A DNA stretch of 64,000 nt from an uncultured Ignavibacteria bacterium (GTDB taxonomy: Bacteria; Bacteroidota; Ignavibacteria; Ignavibacteriales; Ignavibacteriaceae). Location: the NCBI GenBank assembly GCA_963721075.1, contig CAVRHV010000008.1, positions 8,057-72,056 on the forward strand. Reading direction: 5' to 3'. Below the pieces are notes generated by a model that did no database searches, was not told the DNA's origin, and saw only the letters and a list, made by a program, of their open reading frames with translations. Positions 3,173 to 19,928 of this stretch are shown in pieces. A program made the translations under genes and the position numbers. The stretch's first letter is position 1; each line of letters opens with the position of its first letter.

Positions 3173-5061
3173 CTACTTCACCAGAAGCATTTTACGGATT
3201 TGTGAATAGTTTCCTGAAGTGAGCCTGTAAAAATATATGCCGCTGGGCAGTGATGAACCATCAAAAGAAATTTCGTATTCGCCCGCACTCATCTCTCTGT
3301 TAAGCAGTACACTGATCTCTCTCCCAAGTACATCATAAATAATGAGTGATGTTTTTTCATAATGCGGAAGAGTAAAACTTATCTTTGTCGATGGATTAAA
3401 AGGATTGGGGTAATTTTGTGCAAGACTGAAATCCAGACTGGAAATTTTCTGATCATCATTACCGGTGACGTTAAAATGTATTTCTTTACTTTTCATTATA
3501 ACCGGATTTTTATCCGCCTCTTCGTACATCCGGCTGAACCTGTTTATGTCCAATGAATTCATTCCGGCAAGGTATTCGGCAACTTCCGGTTTCAGAGTCT
3601 GATAACATACCTCAGCAGTAATATTCATCTCAGATATTTCATTAACCGGTATTCTGTATTTCACAACATCAGTGCCTGTGCCTTCATTCCCGTTAGCTTT
3701 ATTAAAATCAGGGTCATTCACAGCATAACCATATACAGCGGTAGTATCATAACTCGATATGTGATGACTTAAATCCCAGGGGCGGTATTCTGTTATCTTT
3801 GATAAAAGTTGATGCCCTGAGCAGGGTATAGGTTACGTTTCCGTTTATATCTATCGGTACTGCTTCATATACCTGCACTTCATCATCCCGATTTATTACG
3901 TTGTAATGCTTCTCAAATGGAAGATCCATTCCGTTTATCCTGCCTTCAACTGTCCCAGCTTCCCGATTCGAAAATTTTATTATTGTTTTCATCGGAAGCT
4001 TTAAGATGGATCCACATTCTCCTTAAAGGAATTCCGGTCGGAAGTTTGTGTCCTGTTATGTTTTGCAGCTTCACGCTCACGGTCAGCGAATCATTAATCT
4101 GTTCAGCTTCCACATAAAGATTAAGAGAAAGATCTTTAAGATTCCTTTCGGCAAAAGCCAGTGTAGTATCAAAATGACTGGTTTCTGCGGTTACCTGCAG
4201 TGTATCGGGGTAGTCGCGCAGCATCTTCAAAATAAAAGTATTTCCACCGACAAACGTTTCTTTCCAGAAAGGCGATCTGTGTGTAGTGTCCGACTCAGGA
4301 ATTGTGGCAATATCAATAGGATCAAAAATCTTTGGCGAATGGCAGCTTTGACAGGTGACCTGCTGTGCCGGGTAGATACTGTTTTTCCACTCAAGATAGG
4401 GGGTCTGTTCCGGAAAGTCACCGACTATATTGCCTTGCTCATCAAGTGTGGGAGTAAATAAGGTGTGGCATGTCGCGCATAAATCCGAAGTCAGTGATTT
4501 CGGCTCATAAGTAGGAGTATATCCGATAAACTGCTGCATAAAAAATGTATCGGGGTACTCATATGGCCCATAAACCAGACTGTCATCGGTAATTATGTAA
4601 TTACCTGAGTAAGATGACTGCTGCCCGAAGTTCGAAGGATTTATCTGATGGCAGACAGTGCAGCTAACTCCATCATTTGCAAGAGGATCCAGCCTGAGAT
4701 CAGCCATTGTGTATTTGGTGTGACCGTCATATAGAGCCTGGGTATATCCCATCGGAGCATGGCATTTGGTACAAAGCGTCTCAATTGTGTCCTGCAATGA
4801 CGGAAATTCATTCACTTCACCGGAAACCATTGCTCTCCATAAGGGATCTTTGCTGGAATTTGCCATCATAGTTGAACGCCAGTAAGTGGGAGGTGAAATA
4901 TCCACACCATTTAGCGATAATACATCTCCGTTGCCTGTATGGCAGTCGGCACAGTTTCCTGATCCTGAAAATAGAATGGAATTTTCGGTAGGAAGGGGAT
5001 ATTGTCCGAAAGCAGTTCCGATAATAAATTGGATAAGGACCAGAAAGTAAAATATTTTCAT
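3173..5061 (-). pseudogene. multiheme c-type cytochrome with T9SS C-terminal sorting domain, in three frames as assembled
   Basis: Signal peptide. Five CxxCH sites (CADCH, CTKCH, CTVCH, CATCH, CQSCH) in 3946-5061. The continuation '...DNRIPPLGFKSSH' lies in 3747-3992. The tail in 3173-3721 carries 'NYPNPFNPSTKISF...IYDVLGREI'. Frame breaks at about 3946-3992 and 3750-3770. Confidence 0.7.
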
Positions 5062-5377
5062 CAGCAGATTAGGTAATTGTCGAATTACAGGTAAAATATT
5101 TAAGTCTTAGCAAAGATAACAGACAAATTTACATCAATTTGGATTATTGTCGAAAAATCGACGACTGTTTCATTTTAATTATCCGCGTTTTTTAATAAGA
5201 CACGCCATTTTTATATCGGCATATTAATTGTGTCTCAATCCCTGCAATTATTTAGATTTCCGGCAAAAGACGGCATCCGGATGAAAGTGACGTCAATAAT
5301 GTCGGACAGTATTTGTGTATACGATTAATACAGTGTTAAATAAAATAGTTAATAAATAACAAAGAGAGGCAGCAGCA

Positions 5378-5764
5378 ATGTCTATAGGAAAAATTGGTTT
5401 CCTCGAAACCTACGCGCCGGATGATAATGGCGGTGTTATGGGCGCAATTCTTGTCACCGATGCGGATACAAAACCGCTGGAGTTCAGGGTAACGGCTCCG
5501 ATAAAAACTACCAACTTCCAGAAAACTTTATACGGAGACGTTCTTCTTGAGCACATCCTGGTAGAATTAATATCAGTCCCCCTGATAAATGCTCTGAATG
5601 AAGAGATTGATATAATACTGGTAAAAGATAATCTTTTCCTCGGAGCAAATAACAAGCAGGGCGTCAGAGTTGTCAGAGTTTCCGGAGATGACGATTTTCT
5701 GCTAAAACAAGTAAAGGTTCTCAGGAACTCAAGGCCTATAACGGCAGCGGAAAGATGTTCGTAG
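5378..5764 (+). CDS. hypothetical protein (128 aa), first gene of the SNF2/Mrr-like unit
   Basis: ORF preceded by AGAGAGG about 8 nt upstream. I recognise no family. A second open frame (5692-5907) continues to a TAATG junction with the next gene. Confidence 0.5.
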   Translation: MSIGKIGFLETYAPDDNGGVMGAILVTDADTKPLEFRVTAPIKTTNFQKTLYGDVLLEHILVELISVPLINALNEEIDIILVKDNLFLGANNKQGVRVVRVSGDDDFLLKQVKVLRNSRPITAAERCS

Positions 5765-5906
5765 AAACTTCGAAGAAATATGAAGCTGAACTTGGACAAA
5801 TAAAAGATCTCTTAAACGAGGTTGCTGAAAACAGGAATCTCCTTGAGCCCTTCGACCGCTTGAAACAAGCTTGCGAACAGGTCCATTTACAGAAAACAAG
5901 TGACTA

Positions 5907-8558
5907 ATGTACAGAGTCGTAAGGAAGAAGGTCGCAGAATCAGTCAGTAAGCTTGAATTTCCCGAGCATTACGACTGGAATAAATGGCTGAGAGAACCGG
6001 ATACTGATGATTATTATATAGACAACATCTATACATCGGTTCTTGATACGGATAACCTTAATGTCTGGCCTGAACTTCCTTCAACCAGGGGTTACTCATT
6101 TGATCTCCCCAAAGTAAAATATTCAAAAGCCTTTAAACAGCTTAATATCCAGAAACAGAAGAGTAGCAAGGTATTCTTCAGCTTCCCTAAAACTTCTTTA
6201 TCGGAGATAAAGGAAATTCTCCAGGAAGCAGATATTGCGTACTCGCTGTCGGTTTCGGATTCAGGAAAAGGTGCTATCTTTCGTTTAAGCGATGGTAAAC
6301 CTAAAAAGGTTTCCGGGCCTTCGTCTGAAATACTTATCCGTGAGTTTTACCTGCTTGTTCCCAGGCTTTTCAACTTTCCAATGCTGGTGCCCGGAGAGAA
6401 GGTATACTCTATTACCGTCGGACTTAACGATAAGGTTAAAGTTCTGGATCTTCTCTCTAACCTTAAAACAGAGGTAATGAAGGTTGAACTTCTGAATTCC
6501 GATAACATAATAAATCCTTTGAACAAAGCTGAAAACAGGGTAATTGAATTTCAGCCTCTGCAGAAATCTAATTCGGTAAAAAAGGTTGAGGTCGTGCAGC
6601 TGGAAAAACTCCTCGGTTCTATTAAGGATCAGAAAAAGTTGATCAGCAAAGTCGACTTTGGAGAAATTACTGTCGGAGATAAACCTGCTGAATTTAAGAT
6701 CCCGTCAGCTGTAAAAAATAAACTGAAAATACTTTCCGTCAAGAATATCAGGATTGCTGCCCCTAAAGTTAAACAGGGTGTAAAAATAACTGATAAAATC
6801 CTTTCTGAAACGAACGGTTTTTCGTTTAGCAGCCGGCAAGATGTTATCGATGAGAGTAAAGATGTGCTTTCCAGGGACCTTGAAGTCATCCTGCAGCCTG
6901 TAATGAATTTCAGTACAGAGGAAAAAGCAAAGATATACGATTTCCTTTATGACTATCAGAAACCCGCGGCGGATTTCCTTACGGAAAAAGAAAAAGTGCT
7001 TCTCAATGATGAACTCGGTACCGGAAAGACACTCGAGGTTATCGGAGCTCTGCAGATTCTTTTCAGGAAAAAGGATATATCTAATGCATTAATCGTCTGT
7101 CGTAAAGAAGACATTGGATGGGATAAACGAAATCAGTTATTAAGCAGCACAAAGCTAAGCGGATGGTATGATCACCTGCAAAAGTTCTCGCCTTCAATAA
7201 CAGCAAGCATAATTCACGACAATAGTGAGCACGAGTGGAAGGATCCATCAGCTGTTAAAATTATAGATCACAAATTGTTTAGTGAGGCAATTGAGAAAAA
7301 GTTCATATCTCTGAATGAGCTTAATCGCAGAAGCTGTCTTGTGATAGATGAATTAGAAGATTTTCCCGACATAGTACTTGAACCTGCTCCAAAATACCTG
7401 TGGATGCTGAGCGGACTGCCAACTGAAAAATTGAAAGATAAGATAGCCCTGATTGCTAATACCGAAGAACCTGTCGACAGCTTTGGCAGAACGCGGGAAG
7501 AAATTGCAGAAAAATCTCCCGTTAAAATTAAACAGGATTACTGGCTTGAAATGGATTCTGAACAAAGACTGGAATATGAGAAGGCTCTGGAATCCGGAAG
7601 AGAAAAGATTTATGATCTTGTACAGGCAGGCAATCCATTCCTGGTTCAGTCCAATGTATTTACATTAATCCATCAGCTCACTCAGATCGGCAACTTCTAC
7701 GGAAAAAAAGAATCAAGCGTTAAGTCTGATCTGCTTCTGCATCAGGTTAAAAGCATTCAGCAGAGCGGAAAGAAAGTCATGATATACTCACAGTACGACC
7801 GTCAGGGTACACAGAGACTCGAGAAGCTTTTTGCAAAAAACGGTATAAAGTATGTTGTCTATCAAACCGGCATTTCTCTTAAAGAGATGGAAGATGCTGT
7901 GAAAAAATTTGTCAGGGATAAATCCGTTACGGTTTTTCTGGCTGGTATGAAGGCGCTCAACGCCAAATTCAATCTTGATAACGTGCACTATCTGATCCAT
8001 TTTGATCAGTGGTGGAGTCCTGTAACTACCTGGCAGTCAGAGGAAAAGTTAAATTCAACTGAGAATAATAAGACCAGTCTGAATGTATATAACTATTTCA
8101 TCAAGAACAGCATAGATGAAAAAATTCAGATGAAACTTATCGAGAAGGGACTCGATAACAAAAATATGTTCGACCTCCTCAGTTCTGAAGGTATGTATGC
8201 ATTATTCACTAACGAGGACTGGCTTGAAGTACTGGAACTGGTCGAACCTAAAGACCCATCTTCAGTTGAGACAATGAAAAAAGAACATCTCGATTATATT
8301 GTTAACCTTACTACCGACGATTTTTCGCATAAAGTTAAAGCTCTGCTGGGAAGAATAGGATATAAGAATGTCAGCTTTAAAACGGCTTTCAATCCTGATG
8401 AAATGCGATTATACGCATCTACTATTAAAAATTCAGTAGAGGTTAAAGCAGCTGTTCAATGTCTGAATACAAAAGTTGTAACAAGGAAAGCTGTTAAAGA
8501 ATTTACAGAATCTCTTGTTTCAAACACCGAAAAAATGATTCATCTTCACAACAGGTGA
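5907..8558 (+). CDS. SNF2-family helicase-like ATPase with unknown about 340-aa N-terminal region and C-terminal Mrr-like (PD-(D/E)xK) domain. The reading frame probably continues to 8658 after a +1 break near 8538
   Basis: Motif I 'LNDELGTGKTLE', Ia 'ALIVCRKEDIGW', II 'LVIDELED', III 'WMLSGLP', IV 'VMIYSQY', V 'FLAGMKALNAKFNL...HFDQWWSP'. The tail 'LLGRIGYKNV...AAVQCLNTKVVTRKAVKEF' resembles Mrr_cat. Confidence 0.85.
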   Translation: MYRVVRKKVAESVSKLEFPEHYDWNKWLREPDTDDYYIDNIYTSVLDTDNLNVWPELPSTRGYSFDLPKVKYSKAFKQLNIQKQKSSKVFFSFPKTSLSEIKEILQEADIAYSLSVSDSGKGAIFRLSDGKPKKVSGPSSEILIREFYLLVPRLFNFPMLVPGEKVYSITVGLNDKVKVLDLLSNLKTEVMKVELLNSDNIINPLNKAENRVIEFQPLQKSNSVKKVEVVQLEKLLGSIKDQKKLISKVDFGEITVGDKPAEFKIPSAVKNKLKILSVKNIRIAAPKVKQGVKITDKILSETNGFSFSSRQDVIDESKDVLSRDLEVILQPVMNFSTEEKAKIYDFLYDYQKPAADFLTEKEKVLLNDELGTGKTLEVIGALQILFRKKDISNALIVCRKEDIGWDKRNQLLSSTKLSGWYDHLQKFSPSITASIIHDNSEHEWKDPSAVKIIDHKLFSEAIEKKFISLNELNRRSCLVIDELEDFPDIVLEPAPKYLWMLSGLPTEKLKDKIALIANTEEPVDSFGRTREEIAEKSPVKIKQDYWLEMDSEQRLEYEKALESGREKIYDLVQAGNPFLVQSNVFTLIHQLTQIGNFYGKKESSVKSDLLLHQVKSIQQSGKKVMIYSQYDRQGTQRLEKLFAKNGIKYVVYQTGISLKEMEDAVKKFVRDKSVTVFLAGMKALNAKFNLDNVHYLIHFDQWWSPVTTWQSEEKLNSTENNKTSLNVYNYFIKNSIDEKIQMKLIEKGLDNKNMFDLLSSEGMYALFTNEDWLEVLELVEPKDPSSVETMKKEHLDYIVNLTTDDFSHKVKALLGRIGYKNVSFKTAFNPDEMRLYASTIKNSVEVKAAVQCLNTKVVTRKAVKEFTESLVSNTEKMIHLHNR

Positions 8559-8736
8559 AATTGATGAAAAACTGGTAAAAAGTCCCGGAGACGAAAGAAT
8601 TGTGCTCATTAACAAAAACCAGGCAGCTGAATACTTTTACTTATTTAACCTGATTTAAGGTTATCCGCCTCACCCATTATCCCAACCTTCAATTTCTGTT
8701 TCGCTAATCACAAACATTTATTCTTTTCTTTATTTA

Positions 8737-9420
8737 TTGATAATAAAGGATAGAATGATGAGTTTATTTAAGGACAGATATGATGCCGGAAGATTGCTCG
8801 CTTCAGAGTTGAAAAGATTTAAAGAAGAAGATCTAATACTGCTGGCGCTGCCAAGAGGCGGAGTTCCTGTGGCATATGAAGCTGCAAAGAAACTGGGTGC
8901 CCCGCTTGACATTTTTATTGTTAGAAAAATTGGTGTGCCGGGAAGAGAAGAACTCGCTATGGGGGCAATTGCTATAGGCGGGGTGAAAATATTGAACGAT
9001 AATGTCATAAATATACTTAACCTATCCGAAGAAACAATTCAGGATGCAATACAAAAAGAGAAAGTGGAACTTCAGAGAAGAGAAAAAGAGTATCGGGGCA
9101 GCCGTCCTTTCCCAATTATTGAAAACAGAACAGTAGTGCTTATTGATGACGGCCTGGCTACAGGTGCCAGTATGAAAGCAGCAGTTAAAGCTTTAAAGAA
9201 GCATAATCCGAGCAAAATAATTGTTGCTGTTCCGACAGCTTCTGAAGATACCTGCAATGAATTTCAATCGGAAGTTGACGAAATAATCTGCGCTTACACT
9301 CCCGCAGTCTTCAGAGGCGTTAGTGAATGGTATGATGATTTTTCGCAAACGACAGATGAGGAAGTTATGAATCTTCTGGAAGATTCTTATAGAAGAAGAT
9401 ATATCGATGTTAAAGCTTAA
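8737..9420 (+). CDS. phosphoribosyltransferase-family protein
   Basis: 'LALPRGGVPVA...' and the PRPP-binding motif 'VVLIDDGLATGASM'. Confidence 0.85.
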   Translation: MIIKDRMMSLFKDRYDAGRLLASELKRFKEEDLILLALPRGGVPVAYEAAKKLGAPLDIFIVRKIGVPGREELAMGAIAIGGVKILNDNVINILNLSEETIQDAIQKEKVELQRREKEYRGSRPFPIIENRTVVLIDDGLATGASMKAAVKALKKHNPSKIIVAVPTASEDTCNEFQSEVDEIICAYTPAVFRGVSEWYDDFSQTTDEEVMNLLEDSYRRRYIDVKA

Positions 9421-10756
9421 AAAGAAGGAAGATATGAGCAGAATAGAACTGAAAGAAAATACTACTGAGAATATCATAAGTTATGTTGACAATTTTTCAA
9501 CCGATTTGAATAACTATAATGATCTCGATCCTTTGCTGGAAAGAGTGGGCAGTGCACACTATGTTCTGATGGGAGAGGCCTCACACGGAACTCATGAATA
9601 CTATACCTGGAGAACAAAAATTTCAAAAAGACTTATAAATGAGAAAGGCTTCAACTTTATAGCTGTTGAAGGGGACTGGCCCGACTGTTACAGAATGAAC
9701 CGCTATATAAAGAACTATGAAAATTCTGAAAATAATGCTTCTGAGCTTCTATATCACTTTGAAAGATGGCCTTCATGGATGTGGGCGAACTGGGAAATAG
9801 TTGCACTTCTTGAATGGCTGAAAAATTTTAACTCGGGCCGCCAGAAGAAAGTCGGTTTTTACGGACTGGATGTTTACAGTCTTTGGGAATCAATGCAGGT
9901 AATAATTAAATACCTTGAGGATAGCTATCCTCAAGCTGCCGCTTTGGCAAAAGATGCTTACAAATGTTTTGAACCTTATGGTGAGAATGTTGAAAACTAT
10001 GCTATCAAATCACGACTTGTTCCTGAAAGCTGTGAACAGGAGGTCGTTAAATTGCTTACAGATATCAGAAGAAAAATAAAATCATTTGATTCAGACCCTG
10101 AAGGAGCTCTTAACGCAGAGCAAAATGCTTCTGTATTGGTTAATGCTGAAAAGTACTATCGTGCAATGGTAAGCAGCGGACCGGATTCATGGAATATTCG
10201 CGACAACCATATGGCTGACACTCTCGATCGTCTTAAGGATTACTATGGTAAAAATTCAAAATGTATTATCTGGGCACACAATACGCATATCGGTGATGCG
10301 CGTGCTACAGATATGGCCAAGGCAGGAATGAAAAACCTGGGACAGATAGTTCGTGAAAGACACGGTGATGATGACACTGTTCTAATAGGATTCGGCTCTT
10401 ACCAGGGTAATGTTATCGCAGGAGAAGAATGGGGATCGCCTATGGAGGTTATGGATGTCCCTATAGCAAAACAGAACAGTTGGGAAGATATCTTTCATAA
10501 ATCAGGCGATAAAAACAGGCTGCTTATAACTGATGAACTTGAGGATAAAGAAGAAATGTACAGGATACGAGAGCAGAGAGCTATCGGAGTTGTTTATAAC
10601 CCTTCTCGTGAACGTAATGGAAATTATTTGCCCACAGTTTTGCCTGACAGGTATGATGCATTTATCTATCTCGATGAGACTAATGCACTTCACCCGCTGG
10701 AAGAAACTCCGGGTGAAACACTGCACACACCTGATACATATCCATGGGGAATATAA
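9407..10756 (+). CDS. erythromycin esterase family protein (start could be the downstream Met at 9434)
   Basis: N-terminal 'YVLMGEASHGTHEYYTWRTKISKRLINEKGFNFIAVEGDWPD' is typical of the erythromycin-esterase fold family. Overlaps the upstream gene by 14 nt. Confidence 0.8.
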   Translation: MLKLKKKEDMSRIELKENTTENIISYVDNFSTDLNNYNDLDPLLERVGSAHYVLMGEASHGTHEYYTWRTKISKRLINEKGFNFIAVEGDWPDCYRMNRYIKNYENSENNASELLYHFERWPSWMWANWEIVALLEWLKNFNSGRQKKVGFYGLDVYSLWESMQVIIKYLEDSYPQAAALAKDAYKCFEPYGENVENYAIKSRLVPESCEQEVVKLLTDIRRKIKSFDSDPEGALNAEQNASVLVNAEKYYRAMVSSGPDSWNIRDNHMADTLDRLKDYYGKNSKCIIWAHNTHIGDARATDMAKAGMKNLGQIVRERHGDDDTVLIGFGSYQGNVIAGEEWGSPMEVMDVPIAKQNSWEDIFHKSGDKNRLLITDELEDKEEMYRIREQRAIGVVYNPSRERNGNYLPTVLPDRYDAFIYLDETNALHPLEETPGETLHTPDTYPWGI

Positions 10757-10783
10757 ATTATTGCAAATATTCAGGAGGTTAAA

Positions 10784-11065
10784 ATGCTGGCATTTCAGGA
10801 TGAAGAAATAATGAAGGGAGAAAAAAGGATTGCAGAATGGAGATCAAAAATTGTCAGACTCCAGGGCAGGCTTAATAATGCTTCAGATAATATTTCTGAT
10901 CAATTCGTGGATATGCTGCTGAAACTGGATGAAATGAAAATTAAGGTTGAGGAATTAAAGAATCCGGGCAGCACCAACTTTGAAACAATAAGAGATGAGA
11001 TAAATGAAATTGACGGTCACATAGGAAGGGAATATGACAGAATACAAAGAAAATTATATTCATAA
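10784..11065 (+). CDS. hypothetical small coiled-coil protein
   Basis: ORF only, with a charged heptad-like sequence. Sits directly upstream of ppsA. Confidence 0.4.
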   Translation: MLAFQDEEIMKGEKRIAEWRSKIVRLQGRLNNASDNISDQFVDMLLKLDEMKIKVEELKNPGSTNFETIRDEINEIDGHIGREYDRIQRKLYS

Positions 11066-11079
11066 TGGAATTATAAAAT

Positions 11080-13494
11080 ATGGAAGATAGCAGGAAGTTT
11101 ATTCGCTGGCTCGGCAGCCTTAATAAAGATGATGTAAAAGTAGTTGGTGGTAAGAATGCCTCCCTTGGTGAAATGATATCCTCGCTTAAGCATGAAGGTA
11201 TTAAAGTACCCGATGGTTTTGCTACCACTGCAGATGCATACCGCGAATTTCTCAGGCAGAATGAAATGGAAGAAGAAATCAGAGATCTCCTTGAAAAACT
11301 TAGAGGCGATAACTCCAATCTGGCACATACAGGCAGGGAGATCAGGAAATTATTTCAGAAGAATGAGTTCCCTGGTGAGATAAGACAGACCCTATCTAAA
11401 GCATACAGGGATTTGAGTGATTTGTATGAAACTAAAAATGTTGATGTTGCTGTACGAAGCAGCGCTACAGCGGAAGACCTCCCGGATGCAAGCTTTGCTG
11501 GTCAGCAGGAAACTTATCTGAATATTTCAGGGGAGGATGACTTGTTTGAAGCCTGTCGGAATTGCTATGCTTCATTGTTCACTAACAGGGCTATCAGCTA
11601 CAGGAATGAAAAGGGATTTGATCATATGAAGATAGCTCTATCTGTGGGAATTCAGAAAATGGTCAGATCTGATAAAGCAGGTTCGGGGGTAATGTTCACA
11701 CTTGATACCGAAACCGGATTCAGGGATGTGGTGGTAATAAACGCTGCCTGGGGTCTGGGAGAAAATGTTGTTCAGGGCGCTGTTAATCCTGATGAATACC
11801 AGGTATACAAAAAACTTCTTGAGAATAAGGATGCTGTTCCGATTATAGAAAAAAAGCTCGGCGATAAAGAAAAAAAGATGATCTATTCAAGGGGTGATTC
11901 TGGAAACACTAAAAATGTAGAAACTTCAAAGAAGGAACAAAGAAGTTTTGTACTTACGGATGAGGAAATTATTAAACTCGCCAGATGGGCTTCTGTTATT
12001 GAGAAGCATTACAAAACTCCTATGGATATAGAATGGGCTAAAGACAGCAAAATGAAAGAATTATTTATCGTCCAGGCCCGGCCTGAAACAGTGCAGTCGC
12101 AGAAAACATCACAATCTATGAAAGCCTACAAGCTGAATGAGAGAAAAGAACCTATTATTAAAGGCCGCAGCATCGGGGATGCAATTGCCGCAGGAAAGGT
12201 TCTCGTATTAGAAAGCGCCGATGAGATAGATCGTTTTGAGGATGATGCTATACTCGTAACCGGAATGACTGATCCGGACTGGGTGCCGGTGATGAAAAGA
12301 GCCTCGGGTATTATAACCGACTATGGGGGAAGAACTTCACACGCCGCTATTGTCAGTCGCGAACTAGGTATCCCGGCTATCGTTGGTACAGGCGAAGCAA
12401 CTGAAACACTTAAAGATGATCAGCAGGTTACAATGTCATGTGCTGAAGGTGAGAACGGTTTTGTATATGATGGAATATTAGACTTCGAAGTAGAAGATAT
12501 TGAGCTGGGAGAAATACCTGAAACCAAAACCCGTATTCAGATGAATATTGCAAGTCCTTCCGCTTCCTTCAGATGGTGGAGACTTCCTAATGAAGGGATA
12601 GGACTGGCCAGGATGGAGTTTATCATAAATAATATAATAAAGATTCACCCGATGGCACTTGTTCATTACGATGAACTTGAAGATAAAGATGCTAAGAAAA
12701 CGATACGGGAACTTACTAAAGGATTTGAGAATAAGGAAGACTACTTCATCGAGCATCTTTCCAGAGGGATCGCTAAGATAGCTGCGCCTCAGTACCCTCA
12801 TGATGTTGTGGTGAGAATGAGCGACTTTAAAACAAATGAATATGCGCAGCTTATCGGTGGAGAACAGTTTGAACCTGATGAGGAGAATCCGATGCTTGGG
12901 TTCAGAGGCGCCTCGAGATATTACAGCGAGAACTACAGCGAGGGATTCGAACTTGAATGCAGGGCTATTAAAAAGGCCAGAGAAGAGATAGGGTTAACAA
13001 ACATCGTTATAATGATCCCTTTCTGCCGTACACTTGATGAAGCCGATAAAGTTCTGGAAGCTCTTGCAGATAACGGACTGGTGAGGGGACAGGACGGTCT
13101 CAAAATCTTTGTAATGGCAGAAGTGCCTTCTAATATAATACTTGCCGATAAATTTGCACGCCGCTTCGACGGATTCTCGATAGGAAGTAATGATCTGACC
13201 CAGCTTACCCTTGGAGTAGACAGGGATTCATCTATTCTTTCGGGATTATTTGACGAAAGGGAGGAAGCTGTAAAACGGATGATCGAAATGCTTATTCAAA
13301 AAGCACATGAAAATAATACCAAGGTTAGTATATGCGGACAGGCTCCCAGCGATTACCCCGAAGTTGTAGACTTTCTTGTTAAGACCGGGATTGATTCAAT
13401 TTCACTGAACCCTGACAGTGTTCTTGATATGAAAAAGCGTGTGGCTGAACTTGAAAATAAAACTGCAGCACGTGAGGAAGAAGTTGTTCAATAA
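11080..13494 (+). CDS. ppsA: phosphoenolpyruvate synthase (pyruvate, water dikinase)
   Basis: Full-length match to PpsA architecture: 'VGGKNASLGEM', phosphohistidine region 'GGRTSHAAIVSRELGIPAIVG', and C-terminal PEP-utilising TIM barrel 'GSNDLTQLTLGVDRD'. Confidence 0.95.
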   Translation: MEDSRKFIRWLGSLNKDDVKVVGGKNASLGEMISSLKHEGIKVPDGFATTADAYREFLRQNEMEEEIRDLLEKLRGDNSNLAHTGREIRKLFQKNEFPGEIRQTLSKAYRDLSDLYETKNVDVAVRSSATAEDLPDASFAGQQETYLNISGEDDLFEACRNCYASLFTNRAISYRNEKGFDHMKIALSVGIQKMVRSDKAGSGVMFTLDTETGFRDVVVINAAWGLGENVVQGAVNPDEYQVYKKLLENKDAVPIIEKKLGDKEKKMIYSRGDSGNTKNVETSKKEQRSFVLTDEEIIKLARWASVIEKHYKTPMDIEWAKDSKMKELFIVQARPETVQSQKTSQSMKAYKLNERKEPIIKGRSIGDAIAAGKVLVLESADEIDRFEDDAILVTGMTDPDWVPVMKRASGIITDYGGRTSHAAIVSRELGIPAIVGTGEATETLKDDQQVTMSCAEGENGFVYDGILDFEVEDIELGEIPETKTRIQMNIASPSASFRWWRLPNEGIGLARMEFIINNIIKIHPMALVHYDELEDKDAKKTIRELTKGFENKEDYFIEHLSRGIAKIAAPQYPHDVVVRMSDFKTNEYAQLIGGEQFEPDEENPMLGFRGASRYYSENYSEGFELECRAIKKAREEIGLTNIVIMIPFCRTLDEADKVLEALADNGLVRGQDGLKIFVMAEVPSNIILADKFARRFDGFSIGSNDLTQLTLGVDRDSSILSGLFDEREEAVKRMIEMLIQKAHENNTKVSICGQAPSDYPEVVDFLVKTGIDSISLNPDSVLDMKKRVAELENKTAAREEEVVQ

Positions 13495-17932: not shown

Positions 17933-19928
17933 GTGATGAAAAAGACGTTGATACTGTTTATGATAGCTTTCAGCACAGTATTACTCTATTCACAGTCTGC
18001 CAAAGTTGTGACATACGGAGTAGATCCCCGTCAGGCGGAAGGAGATAGTACAGATATCTTTGAACTTCCTTATAATGGTCTGACAAACGTTGGTGAAAAT
18101 ACCCAGATGTATCTGGAAGCTATTTTAACCGATGCTACTCTTGATAATCCAACCTGGACTGTAGTAGAACAACCAAATGGTTCTAATCCAGTATTCGGAG
18201 CCAGTGTTAACCTGTCTGACGCAGAACAGGTAATAGAATTCAAACCTGACTTATCAGGTACTTATAAAATTGTTTTTTCAGATGGTTCAGTTTCTTCTGA
18301 TCCTCTGGTAATTAAAGTGGGCTTATATCTCGGATACCAGTATTCTTACCCTGTATTACCGAATCATGCCTGCCAGGATTGCCATGCTGACAAAACAGCA
18401 CAGTGGGAACAGACAGGGCACTATTCAATTTTTGAAGAAGGTTTGAACGGTACCTTAAGCAATCATTATGGACCGACCTGTATAAAATGTCATACAACCG
18501 GTTATGATGCTAATGCAGTTAATAATGGTTTTGATGATTTCGGTTTCGTATTCCCCGATACCTTATTCCCTGGACAATTCGATAATATGGTTGCCCAGTA
18601 TCCTGATGCAATGCTTCGCGCACGTATTCAGTGTGAAAGCTGCCACGGACCAGGAAGTATGCACGTAGGTGCTGCTAATGTAATGTCAGTTACTCTCGAC
18701 GTTCAGAACTGTGCTCTCTGCCACGATGAAGGACACCATGTATATCCGGCTCAATGGAGAGCTTCAGATCATGCTATGTTTGCCAAATCCGGCGGCGAAA
18801 CCAGAGCTTCCTGTGCACAATGTCATGATGGTGCAGGATTTGTTGATTATATCAAAGCAGGAAAAACACCTCCTTCGAGCGACTATTCTGAAGTAACTAA
18901 GATTACCTGTGCAGTCTGCCATGATCCTCACAGTGTTGAGAATCCTCATCAGCTGAGAACAATGACTGCTACTTTAACAAATGGTTATGAAATTACCGGA
19001 GCCGGTAATGGTGCTATCTGTATAAACTGCCACAAAGCCCGTCAGAATGCCGTAGATTATACAAACAATTATCTTAAGTAACTTAAGCACACACTATGGA
19101 CCTCATCATGGTCCCCAGGGTGATTTATTAGTAGGTAAAAATGCTATAACATTCGGTCAGAACATTGAAAGTTCACCGCACTTAGCAGCTACTACCGATG
19201 CATGCGTTAGATGCCATATGTATCCGGCAAGTTCTGATGCAAATGGAAATGTAATCCTGGTAGGTTCACACTCATTCAATATGTCATATGATGGCGTAGA
19301 TAATGTCGCTGCATGCACAGACTGCCACGGTGACTTTGGTCCTAACTTCTCAGATAAGCTTTGCTATATAAACGGTACAGCAGATCTTGACGGCGATGGA
19401 GTTGCTAATGGTCTTCAGATAGAAATTGAAGGCCTGCTTGAACAGCTTCATGATTTACTGCCTCAGGATGGTAATGGTAACGTAGTTATTAACGATTCTT
19501 CTGTAACATTAGCCGAGGCTCAGGCTGCTTATAACTACTTTATGGTAGAAGATGACGGAAGTATGGGCGTACACAATCCAAGATATATATTCGGAATTCT
19601 CAAGGCTTCTATCGAAGCTTTAGGCGGAACAGTAGCTGTTGATTATGCTAAGAGCGATATGCCTGAAGATTTCGTATTGTCACAGAACTATCCTAATCCG
19701 TTCAACCCAACAACTACTATTCAGTATCAGATACCCGAAGGTTCTAATGTAAAAGTAGTTGTTTATGACGCTCTTGGAAAACAGGTAGCCGTTCTGGTTA
19801 ATGAATACCAGGGTGCCGGTTCTTATAAAACAAACTTCAATGCATCTAATCTTGCATCCGGAATCTATTTCTGCAGAATGGAAGCAGGAAGCTTTGTTAA
19901 AGTTAACAAGATGCTTTTACTCAAGTAA
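17933..19928 (+). pseudogene. nine-heme c-type cytochrome with T9SS C-terminal sorting domain (paralogue A). One extra base at about 19076-19079 creates an in-frame TAA
   Basis: Colinear with the intact paralogue at 20117-22087. Has 9 CxxCH (CQDCH, CIKCH, CESCH, CALCH, CAQCH, CAVCH, CINCH, CVRCH, CTDCH). Removing one base restores '...YLNNLSTHYGPHHGPQGD', matching the paralogue's 'YLNNLSTHYGPHHGPQAD'. Tail 'NYPNPFNPTTTIQY'. The likely start is ATG 17936 after GGGAGA. Confidence 0.8.

Follow-up and report, generated by a model that had tools for sequence, protein, structure and literature searches.

A previously undescribed two-gene SNF2 module and its probably non-catalytic Ignavibacteriota branch

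In a 64,000-nucleotide (nt) window of an uncultured Ignavibacteria bacterium (assembly GCA_963721075.1, contig CAVRHV010000008.1, positions 8,057 to 72,056 of the forward strand), positions 5378-8658 carry a small gene followed by a large one, and the two form a translationally coupled operon. The large gene encodes an SNF2-type ATPase core fused to an Mrr-like nuclease domain, and the small one a protein with a predicted RNase-H-like fold. Sequence comparisons show that the pair belongs to a widespread, uncharacterised two-gene module, whose large subunit is ZorD-like in its SNF2 plus Mrr architecture. This module is previously undescribed, and its branch in Ignavibacteriota is probably enzymatically silent. 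The Ignavibacteria operon is under strong selection, and it is considered here, with a probability of roughly 0.6, to be a non-catalytic derivative of the intact module that has been kept for binding or scaffolding.

On the plus strand, the locus was listed as three co-directional open reading frames (ORFs), 5378-5764 (128 aa), 5755-5907 (50 aa) and 5907-8558 (883 aa). An earlier note, made from the DNA letters and this ORF list, described it accordingly as an 883-aa protein coupled to one or more small upstream ORFs; the sequence features named in that note are present, but the gene structure is not the one it gave. Once repaired, 5378-8658 hold two genes and not three ORFs, a small partner gene of 174 aa (5378-5907, +) and a large gene of 916 aa (5907-8658, +). 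The 128-aa ORF has homologues of 172-181 aa, which align with no more than its first 106 residues and whose C-termini match the 50-aa ORF. Because these homologues span both small ORFs, the two are a single gene, interrupted by five inserted nt (TTTTC, about 5695-5699) that were mapped against a related contig, L015, of 96.1% nucleotide identity to the window. In the large gene, a 1-nt insertion (G, 8537) makes the window ORF stop at 8558, so that its last 39 codons continue in the +1 frame (8539-8658); the frameshift is placed near 8537 because the C-terminal strings (FIFTTGE..., IVLINKNQAAEYF) lie in that frame. Both the 174-aa and the 916-aa gene are intact in L015, and the repaired small protein is identical to the L015 protein (no nonsynonymous divergence, dN 0). 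An intact 916-aa version of the large protein (P0001) is 99% identical, and intact orthologues measure 910-921 aa. The stop and start codons of the two genes overlap as TAATG at 5905-5909, as had been remarked, and the overlap recurs in relatives. Programmed frameshifting was rejected as a candidate explanation, given that every homologue is in frame.

The five SNF2 strings first listed for the 883-aa ORF (5907-8558, +), GTGKT, LVIDELED, LSGLP, IYSQY and HFDQWWSP, are all present in that order. Among the hidden Markov models proposed earlier as a check (SNF2_N, Helicase_C and Mrr_cat), two score above their Pfam cut-offs in the repaired 916-aa protein, Helicase_C with 37.9 bits (cut-off 23.5) and SNF2-rel_dom with 30.1 bits (cut-off 24.9; aa 350-443 only, against 163-173 bits in intact relatives), and Mrr_cat, at 20.3 bits, lies slightly below its cut-off of 21 (83-96 bits in the intact relatives used for hhalign). 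The hhalign comparison with intact relatives extends over 571 columns across the SNF2 core and the Mrr domain (probability 100, E 1.5e-87). Searched against the PDB, the large-family profile matches 1z63, a Sulfolobus Rad54-like SNF2 core, from Walker A through motif VI (E 5e-16), and among proteins of known structure it is the best homologue for the ATPase core. The large protein is thus a true SNF2 plus Mrr homologue. Its SNF2-like two-lobe ATPase core (aa 346-760; 6942-8186, +) was delimited from Pfam, the 1z63 profile match and hhalign, and its Mrr-like domain of PD-(D/E)xK fold (aa about 800-916; 8304-8658, +), in which the catalytic residues are missing, from Mrr_cat and hhalign.

Within this framework, motif scan and alignment show an intact Walker A (GTGKT, aa 371-375; 7017-7031, +), and motif II (DELE, aa 481-484; 7347-7358, +) keeps the Walker B Asp-Glu by alignment and hhalign. 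DELE had been read as a departure from the SNF2 family, but it is no real one, since the Asp-Glu pair is present and both SsoRad54 (1z63) and ZorD read DEAQ (PMC11946911). The motif III site reads SGLP and fails the [ST]G[ST]P pattern. The motif VI remnant, QSEEKLNSTENNK (aa 710-722; 8034-8072, +), was located by alignment to 1z63 and to intact relatives: QSEEKLNSTEN stands opposite QATDRVYRIGQ in the former and QAEDRaHRxGQ in the latter, and the family profile itself (qaeekinssen) aligns to the same stretch of 1z63. Here Lys replaces the first arginine and both the second arginine and GQ are missing, which agrees with the absence of Arg noticed at the outset. At the three sites where the window protein has DELE, SGLP and QSEEKLNSTEN, 1z63 has DEAQ, TGTP and QATDRVYRIGQ; it also differs in lacking the Mrr domain, the N-terminal signature and the small partner. 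In the Mrr-like domain, the DGGxD aspartates are replaced by P830 and R834 (the latter listed at 8406-8408, +), and the QxK lysine by L853 (8463-8465, +). The earlier reading of an Mrr layout with Leu in place of the catalytic Lys stands as far as L853 is concerned, but the C-terminal strings quoted for it lie outside the 883-aa ORF. Neither hmmalign nor hhalign finds the catalytic residues at shifted positions. A candidate shifted PD-(D/E)xK site, 'PD...E845-V-K847', was rejected because the catalytic Asp and Lys align to R834 and L853 in both programs; E845 belongs to the preceding strand, is nothing unusual and is shared with intact relatives. Altogether, motif III and the two arginines of motif VI are gone from the large protein, as are the aspartates and the lysine of the Mrr site.

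How far this erosion extends was seen from a family census. Word-index protein searches returned only about 20 close relatives (910-966 aa), conserved end to end, and missed distant members that had already been found through gene context. When 1.84 billion cluster representatives were searched exhaustively with a profile, 289 clusters were obtained at E <= 1e-30, the best 150 of which were aligned to the family model; the census consists of the 132 near-full-length representatives among them, 53 of an intact class and 79 of an eroded class, with the Mrr residues scored on 30 and 69 of these, respectively. The window protein falls in the eroded class, a family of at least 79 clusters. Walker A is present in 53/53 intact and 33/79 eroded representatives (as G.GK[TS]), and the Walker B Asp-Glu in 50/53 and 36/79. 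Motif III is found in 47/53 intact representatives against 0/79 eroded ones. The first arginine of motif VI is kept in 53/53 intact and 11/79 eroded representatives (Lys in 30), and the second in 53/53 and a single one of the 79. For the nuclease, D.G.D is conserved in 28/30 intact and 0/69 eroded representatives, and the lysine in 27/30 and 2/69, a hydrophobic residue taking its place in 59. Many eroded-class members have no Walker A at all (for example, PRSNI or VVDNI at this site) and still have the partner. In a neighbour-joining tree, rooted at midpoint only, one split sets the 53 intact representatives and one intermediate apart from 78 eroded ones. All eroded-class sequences that carry an organism name come from Ignavibacteriota, save two bins of metagenome-assembled genomes with short contigs and other labels. 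By the census and the tree, the motif erosion is old and family-wide.

The intact class has canonical ATPase motifs, and about half of it has an intact Mrr nuclease; elsewhere the C-terminal domain has been swapped or is absent. In L066 (2754-5363), a DnaJ domain (51 bits) occupies the place of Mrr, in L104 (983-3430) an Swt1-like HEPN domain (25 bits, slightly under the cut-off), and in L094 (4578-7253) and L088 (758-3463) a domain that has no match in Pfam; each of these four loci retains the small partner. A further observation concerns L017, a 1.46-Mb Ignavibacteria contig, where the large-gene homologue (8538-11555) is broken directly after Walker A by an in-frame TAATAG, so that two genes, of 469 and 510 aa, are called in its place. 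This double stop could reflect a sequencing error, or the gene could truly be disrupted.

The coupling to an upstream partner that had been proposed for the window holds much more widely, the pair being kept as a unit in every locus examined. The module was defined as a small RNase-H-fold protein together with an SNF2 protein that has the N-terminal signature, and a locus was counted if the small gene lay directly upstream on the same strand and its product had the motifs D..P.EFR.T...Q..LYG and EPF.R. This was found in the repaired window, in 14/14 genome loci, in L015-L019 and L021-L024, in the P0210 contig and in 75/80 metagenome loci. The latter come from a metagenome scan with the intact-class alignment, which yielded 534 confirmed stretches, of which 80 loci with 27% to 71% guanine plus cytosine (GC) were retained; in 75 the partner is immediately upstream on the same strand, and the other five have no upstream DNA. 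All eroded-class loci examined have the small gene immediately upstream, its stop codon in many cases overlapping the start of the large gene, and the pairing holds in distant members despite differing neighbours. In four intact-class loci, the partner recognised by hmmsearch (E 1e-28 to 1e-48) likewise lies directly upstream.

The small protein has no family match in Pfam, NCBIfam, PADLOC, PHROGs or a PDB profile search. An AlphaFold2 model built from 86 sequences (predicted local distance difference test, pLDDT, 82.6; predicted template modelling score, pTM, 0.81) places the core in residues 1-102 and a helical hairpin in residues 131-173, with a variable linker between them. The N-terminal domain (aa 1-106; 5378-5695, +), modelled as beta-beta-beta-alpha-beta-alpha-beta, is RNase-H-like according to AlphaFold2 and Foldseek, and the C-terminal hairpin (AlphaFold2 helices 131-150 and 155-173; 5755-5904, +) contains the motif EPFxRL..A..QVH. 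Endonuclease V is the top Foldseek match (E 1e-4 with probability 1.0 in the PDB, E 8e-4 in the viral library), followed by PIWI (E 3e-3) and RNase H, with SPARDA and SPARTA chains among the matches; the modelled fold is thus of an RNase-H/Endonuclease-V-like type. The likeness to Endonuclease V (Nfi) and to Argonaute PIWI is one of fold only. The small protein differs from both in its core of about 105 aa, in the missing MID domain and in the extra C-terminal helical hairpin, and hhalign detects no sequence-level relation to E. coli Nfi (probability 0.16). Membership of Endonuclease V is contradicted by the lack of a sequence family match and by the variability of position 10 in the partners of intact enzymes. 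An analogy may also be drawn with SPARDA, a short prokaryotic Argonaute system that combines an RNase-H-fold protein devoid of the canonical catalytic set with a PD-(D/E)xK partner. Here, by contrast, MID and APAZ are missing, the effector is SNF2-based and guide binding is not indicated, which makes SPARDA a lead and not a membership.

Conservation is higher in the small protein than in the large one. Across 14 genomes, the former is 92-100% identical where the latter is 58-88% identical, and an identity of 62% is still seen where the large protein is at about 28% and Walker A is wholly lost. Residues conserved in both classes comprise G22, L25, D28, P33, E35, F36, R37 and T39, and then Q48, L51, Y52, G53, L56, L64, P68 and L69, and the C-terminal P156, F157, R159 and A163 are invariant in a nine-sequence alignment drawn from both classes. 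E10, E58, H59, E63, D78 and D84 hardly vary, if at all, within the eroded class, whereas the partners of intact enzymes differ at these positions. Position 10, the acidic position of beta-strand 1 that is typical of RNase H nucleases, is Glu in 85/86 Ignavibacteriota proteins. Since this residue varies in the partners of intact enzymes, the ancestral small protein was probably a non-canonical, non-catalytic RNase-H-fold subunit. Two other positions also distinguish the two sets of partners: position 21 (5438-5440) is Arg in 72/74 partners of intact enzymes and Met in 83/86 Ignavibacteriota partners, and position 97 (about 5666-5668) is Pro in 67/74 and Arg in 86/86.

The small and large proteins would form a complex in which the large subunit has lost DNA cutting and, probably, translocation. 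In the window lineage, this subunit may still bind ATP, since Walker A and Walker B are intact, and it would act as a DNA-binding or scaffolding partner of the small subunit. The predicted complex would then have a housekeeping role exerted by binding and would not be a mobile defence gene. Several points weigh against such a non-catalytic derivative. To call the eroded class a derived clade rests on the assumption that the canonical motifs are ancestral, the root being a midpoint, and its restriction to Ignavibacteriota is based on the minority of sequences that have organism names. The two frameshifts could be real and very recent mutations. Slow or partner-stimulated ATP hydrolysis is conceivable in a protein that keeps Walker A, Walker B and the motif VI Lys. 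Finally, the complex may still be a nuclease, with E10, E58, E63 and D84 fixed in the eroded class at positions whose topology resembles that of an RNase H active site.

Whether catalysis persists is the alternative that survives best. The complex would still be enzymatic if a slow or partner-activated ATPase used Lys713 instead of the arginine finger and if DNA or RNA cleavage had moved to the small RNase-H-fold subunit. Besides the intact Walker motifs of the window lineage, this is favoured by the Lys at the first-arginine site of motif VI in 30/79 eroded representatives, by the six small-protein residues that are (near-)invariant only in the eroded class, and by a fold that is the one of the nucleases Endonuclease V and RNase H. 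However, motif III is lost in all 79 eroded representatives, and ATP use is not a conserved function across the family, because many eroded members without Walker A retain the partner. The fold argument is tempered by the absence of any sequence-level relation to Endonuclease V, and the invariance of the acidic residues may merely reflect the narrow taxonomic range of the alignment. A complex with residual enzymatic activity is consequently regarded as rather unlikely, and a non-catalytic derivative is preferred.

The pattern of selection bears on whether the operon is being lost. For the large gene, the ratio of nonsynonymous to synonymous substitution rates (dN/dS) is 0.05-0.08 against four relatives (0.05 against the nearest, L015), and for the small gene it is 0-0.04, values that mark strong purifying selection on both. 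All parts of the large protein are conserved, with mean identities of 72% for the Mrr-like domain and 78% for the N-terminal signature, and orthologues are full length and intact in 15 other genomes. The upstream cytochrome gene is shared in 12/14 species-level genomes; as to the two exceptions, the L011 contig ends upstream and L009 has no match. Downstream neighbours vary among the 14 genomes, and in more distant Ignavibacteriota the pair lies among other housekeeping genes, such as those for FeoAB and Fur, for an SpoU methylase or for hydrogenase subunits. In the window, its neighbours are the cytochrome gene, a phosphoribosyltransferase-like ORF (named from sequence) and a PEP synthase-like gene. 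The GC content of the locus is 0.396, against 0.410 +/- 0.015 in windows of equal size. As to the AT- and Lys-rich character ascribed to the unit, the Lys content of the large protein (11.7%) is indeed the highest of 40 ORFs, but the base composition is ordinary, and the idea of a foreign AT-rich island is at odds with both this composition and the synteny with the cytochrome gene. Since low dN/dS, synteny and ordinary composition coincide, the large gene is not decaying, and the operon is not compositionally foreign; its inheritance appears vertical.

A decaying defence gene or pseudogene would require that the frameshifts at 5695 and 8537 be real and that the operon be on its way out, and it is true that each of the two genes is frameshifted in the window and that the catalytic motifs are eroded. 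The frameshifts, however, are not confined to the operon. Further unbalanced 1-nt indels relative to L015 occur at 2328, 3758 and 3948, where they split an OmpA-like gene (1689-2772, at about 2328) and a cytochrome/Por_Secre_tail gene (3173-5061, at about 3758 and 3948), whose L015 versions are intact at 360 aa and 628 aa. The window thus differs from L015 by five frameshifting indels within 9.5 kb that affect four genes, which gives the assembly here an indel-rich look. The economical reading is one of assembly error, because the neighbouring genes are broken in a similar way, as by errors in the assembly consensus, and because comparison with L015 gives the large gene a dN/dS of 0.05 and the small gene a dN of 0; both operon frameshifts are most likely of this kind. 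With orthologues intact in 15 other genomes and with an erosion that is old and common to the whole family, a decaying gene appears very improbable. Between the two possibilities raised in the earlier note, a decayed defence gene does not agree with a dN/dS of 0.05-0.08 and family-wide erosion, and a domesticated, non-catalytic module does. That note was right on catalytic erosion, and it missed the frameshifts, the single RNase-H-like partner and the widespread intact pairs. Elsewhere in the window, a paralogous gene of about 630 aa (17936-19928) is split between 19081 and 19218, and its L003 orthologue is intact.

Among known systems, type I Zorya offers a close architectural parallel, ZorD combining, as here, an N-terminal domain with an SNF2 ATPase and, at the C-terminus, an Mrr-like region. 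A PADLOC ZorD model ('SWI2/SNF2 helicase, Mrr-like nuclease') is the best or second-best match of intact relatives, at 234-250 bits, with DpdE among the best-scoring PADLOC models, and one ZorD model (203-212 bits) aligns intact relatives through the Mrr part. The family profile has a weak PDB match to 8qy7 (E 1.8e-6). We take 8QY7 and 8QYC to be ZorD; the depositors' name is only 'DEAD/DEAH box helicase'. The NCBIfam ZorD model gives no match to the window protein and 133-140 bits with intact relatives, against a cut-off of 1500. For intact relatives, the best NCBIfam models are the 'pilus expression-regulating Snf2' and SCO1167 families, all far under curated cut-offs, and RapA (PRK04914) scores 34-60 bits against a cut-off of 576 and does not match the window protein. 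For the window protein itself, the PADLOC and NCBIfam matches (DpdE, DrmD and the SCO1167 family) are all weak and confined to the C-terminal ATPase lobe, the Hma, Dpd and DISARM models (HmaA, DpdE, DrmD) reaching <= 42 bits there.

ZorD is an autoinhibited ATP-dependent nuclease that requires ZorA, ZorB and ZorC, and its motif II, DEAQ, has no His and is required for ATP-dependent DNA degradation (PMC11946911). The window protein differs from it in lacking the arginine fingers and the nuclease residues, and its partner, unlike those of Zorya, is a 174-aa RNase-H-fold protein with no PADLOC match. HmaA, an Snf2 helicase with a C-terminal PD-(D/E)xK nickase, works with HmaB and HmaC, and its nuclease is needed for defence (PMC11232893). 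The fusion of an SNF2 ATPase to a C-terminal PD-(D/E)xK nuclease is common to HmaA and the present family (59-95 bits for intact relatives with PADLOC HmaA), but the resemblance is weaker than to ZorD or DpdE and the nuclease site is dead here. Neither Zorya nor Hma systems have the small RNase-H-fold partner. No ZorA/B/C, HmaB/C or dpd genes lie near the window locus, and methylase, dpd and drm genes are absent from the window and from related loci. Intact-class neighbourhoods are mixed, one being near an integrase, one near PIN, DUF4145 and AAA_14 genes, and the remaining ones housekeeping-like (some judged by eye). A functional phage-defence system akin to Zorya (ZorD), Hma or Dpd, to which the ZorD and DpdE scores, such neighbours and the swapping of the C-terminal domain (Mrr, HEPN-like, DnaJ) among relatives would point, is the least probable reading, given the weak C-lobe matches of the window protein, the absence of the accessory genes, the loss of the nuclease residues and a syntenic, housekeeping neighbourhood.

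At the N-terminus, the large protein begins with a signature, MYRxVRKKVAESVSKL...W.KWLR.P. (aa 1-31; 5907-5999, +), recognised in an end-to-end alignment of relatives, in which M1, R6, K8, A10, S14, W27, L28, R29 and P31 are invariant; many catalytically intact relatives have a similar start, R.K.A..VSK[IL]..P. It is followed by a Lys-rich region (aa 32-345; 6000-6941, +; Lys 12.8%), to which neither a family nor a fold could be assigned. Pfam has no match for the first 345 aa, in line with the roughly 340 aa that were unrecognised at first reading, and an AlphaFold2 model of this part from a 12-sequence alignment was unusable (pLDDT 40, pTM 0.14).

Upstream of the operon, the intergenic region (5062-5377, +) was compared in an alignment of 16 upstream regions. 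Three elements on the plus strand are kept in about 16 related genomes: the block CGGCATATTAATTG (5217-5230), the palindrome TGACGTCA with TGTCGGACA after it, N4 lying between them (5288-5308), and GAGAGG with a conserved spacer to the ATG (GAGAGGCAGCAGCA; 5364-5377). These blocks persist where the remaining spacer has diverged, in the window's own lineage only, and they were not found in distant loci. Rfam has no match in the upstream region, and promoter and terminator scans gave matches no more numerous than in shuffled sequence. The candidate blocks may represent either a leader or a promoter together with an operator.

The module may also reach beyond bacteria. This is suggested by an intact-class locus in L022 (GCA_002402275.1; 13617-14018 and surroundings) that lies beside archaeal-flavoured genes, its neighbours including a tRNA-Thr_ED domain, a GHMP kinase adjoining AA_kinase, and UbiA, and also GreA/GreB.

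ZorD and HmaA are SNF2-nuclease fusions that serve as effectors in phage defence, and here the same architecture is found with both active sites removed and selection strong. The eroded architecture appears to persist across the whole phylum, and the literature searched yielded no description of a bacterial SNF2 pseudoenzyme or of an Ignavibacteria SNF2 protein. It is possible, although we advance this only tentatively, that in Ignavibacteriota an ATP-driven nuclease module has become an enzymatically silent complex with a core role such as nucleoid organisation, transcription or repair signalling, with the small subunit as functional centre and the pseudo-SNF2/pseudo-Mrr protein as its DNA-binding scaffold, and that the intact parent is an undescribed, widespread system. 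The locus moreover uncovers a partner family of RNase-H-like predicted fold, which accompanies these SNF2 proteins in every case where upstream DNA is available, at 27% to 71% GC. Together, the intact and dead versions provide a natural comparison that could reveal which elements of such a machine stay important in the absence of catalysis, and what is bound or sensed by the small subunit.

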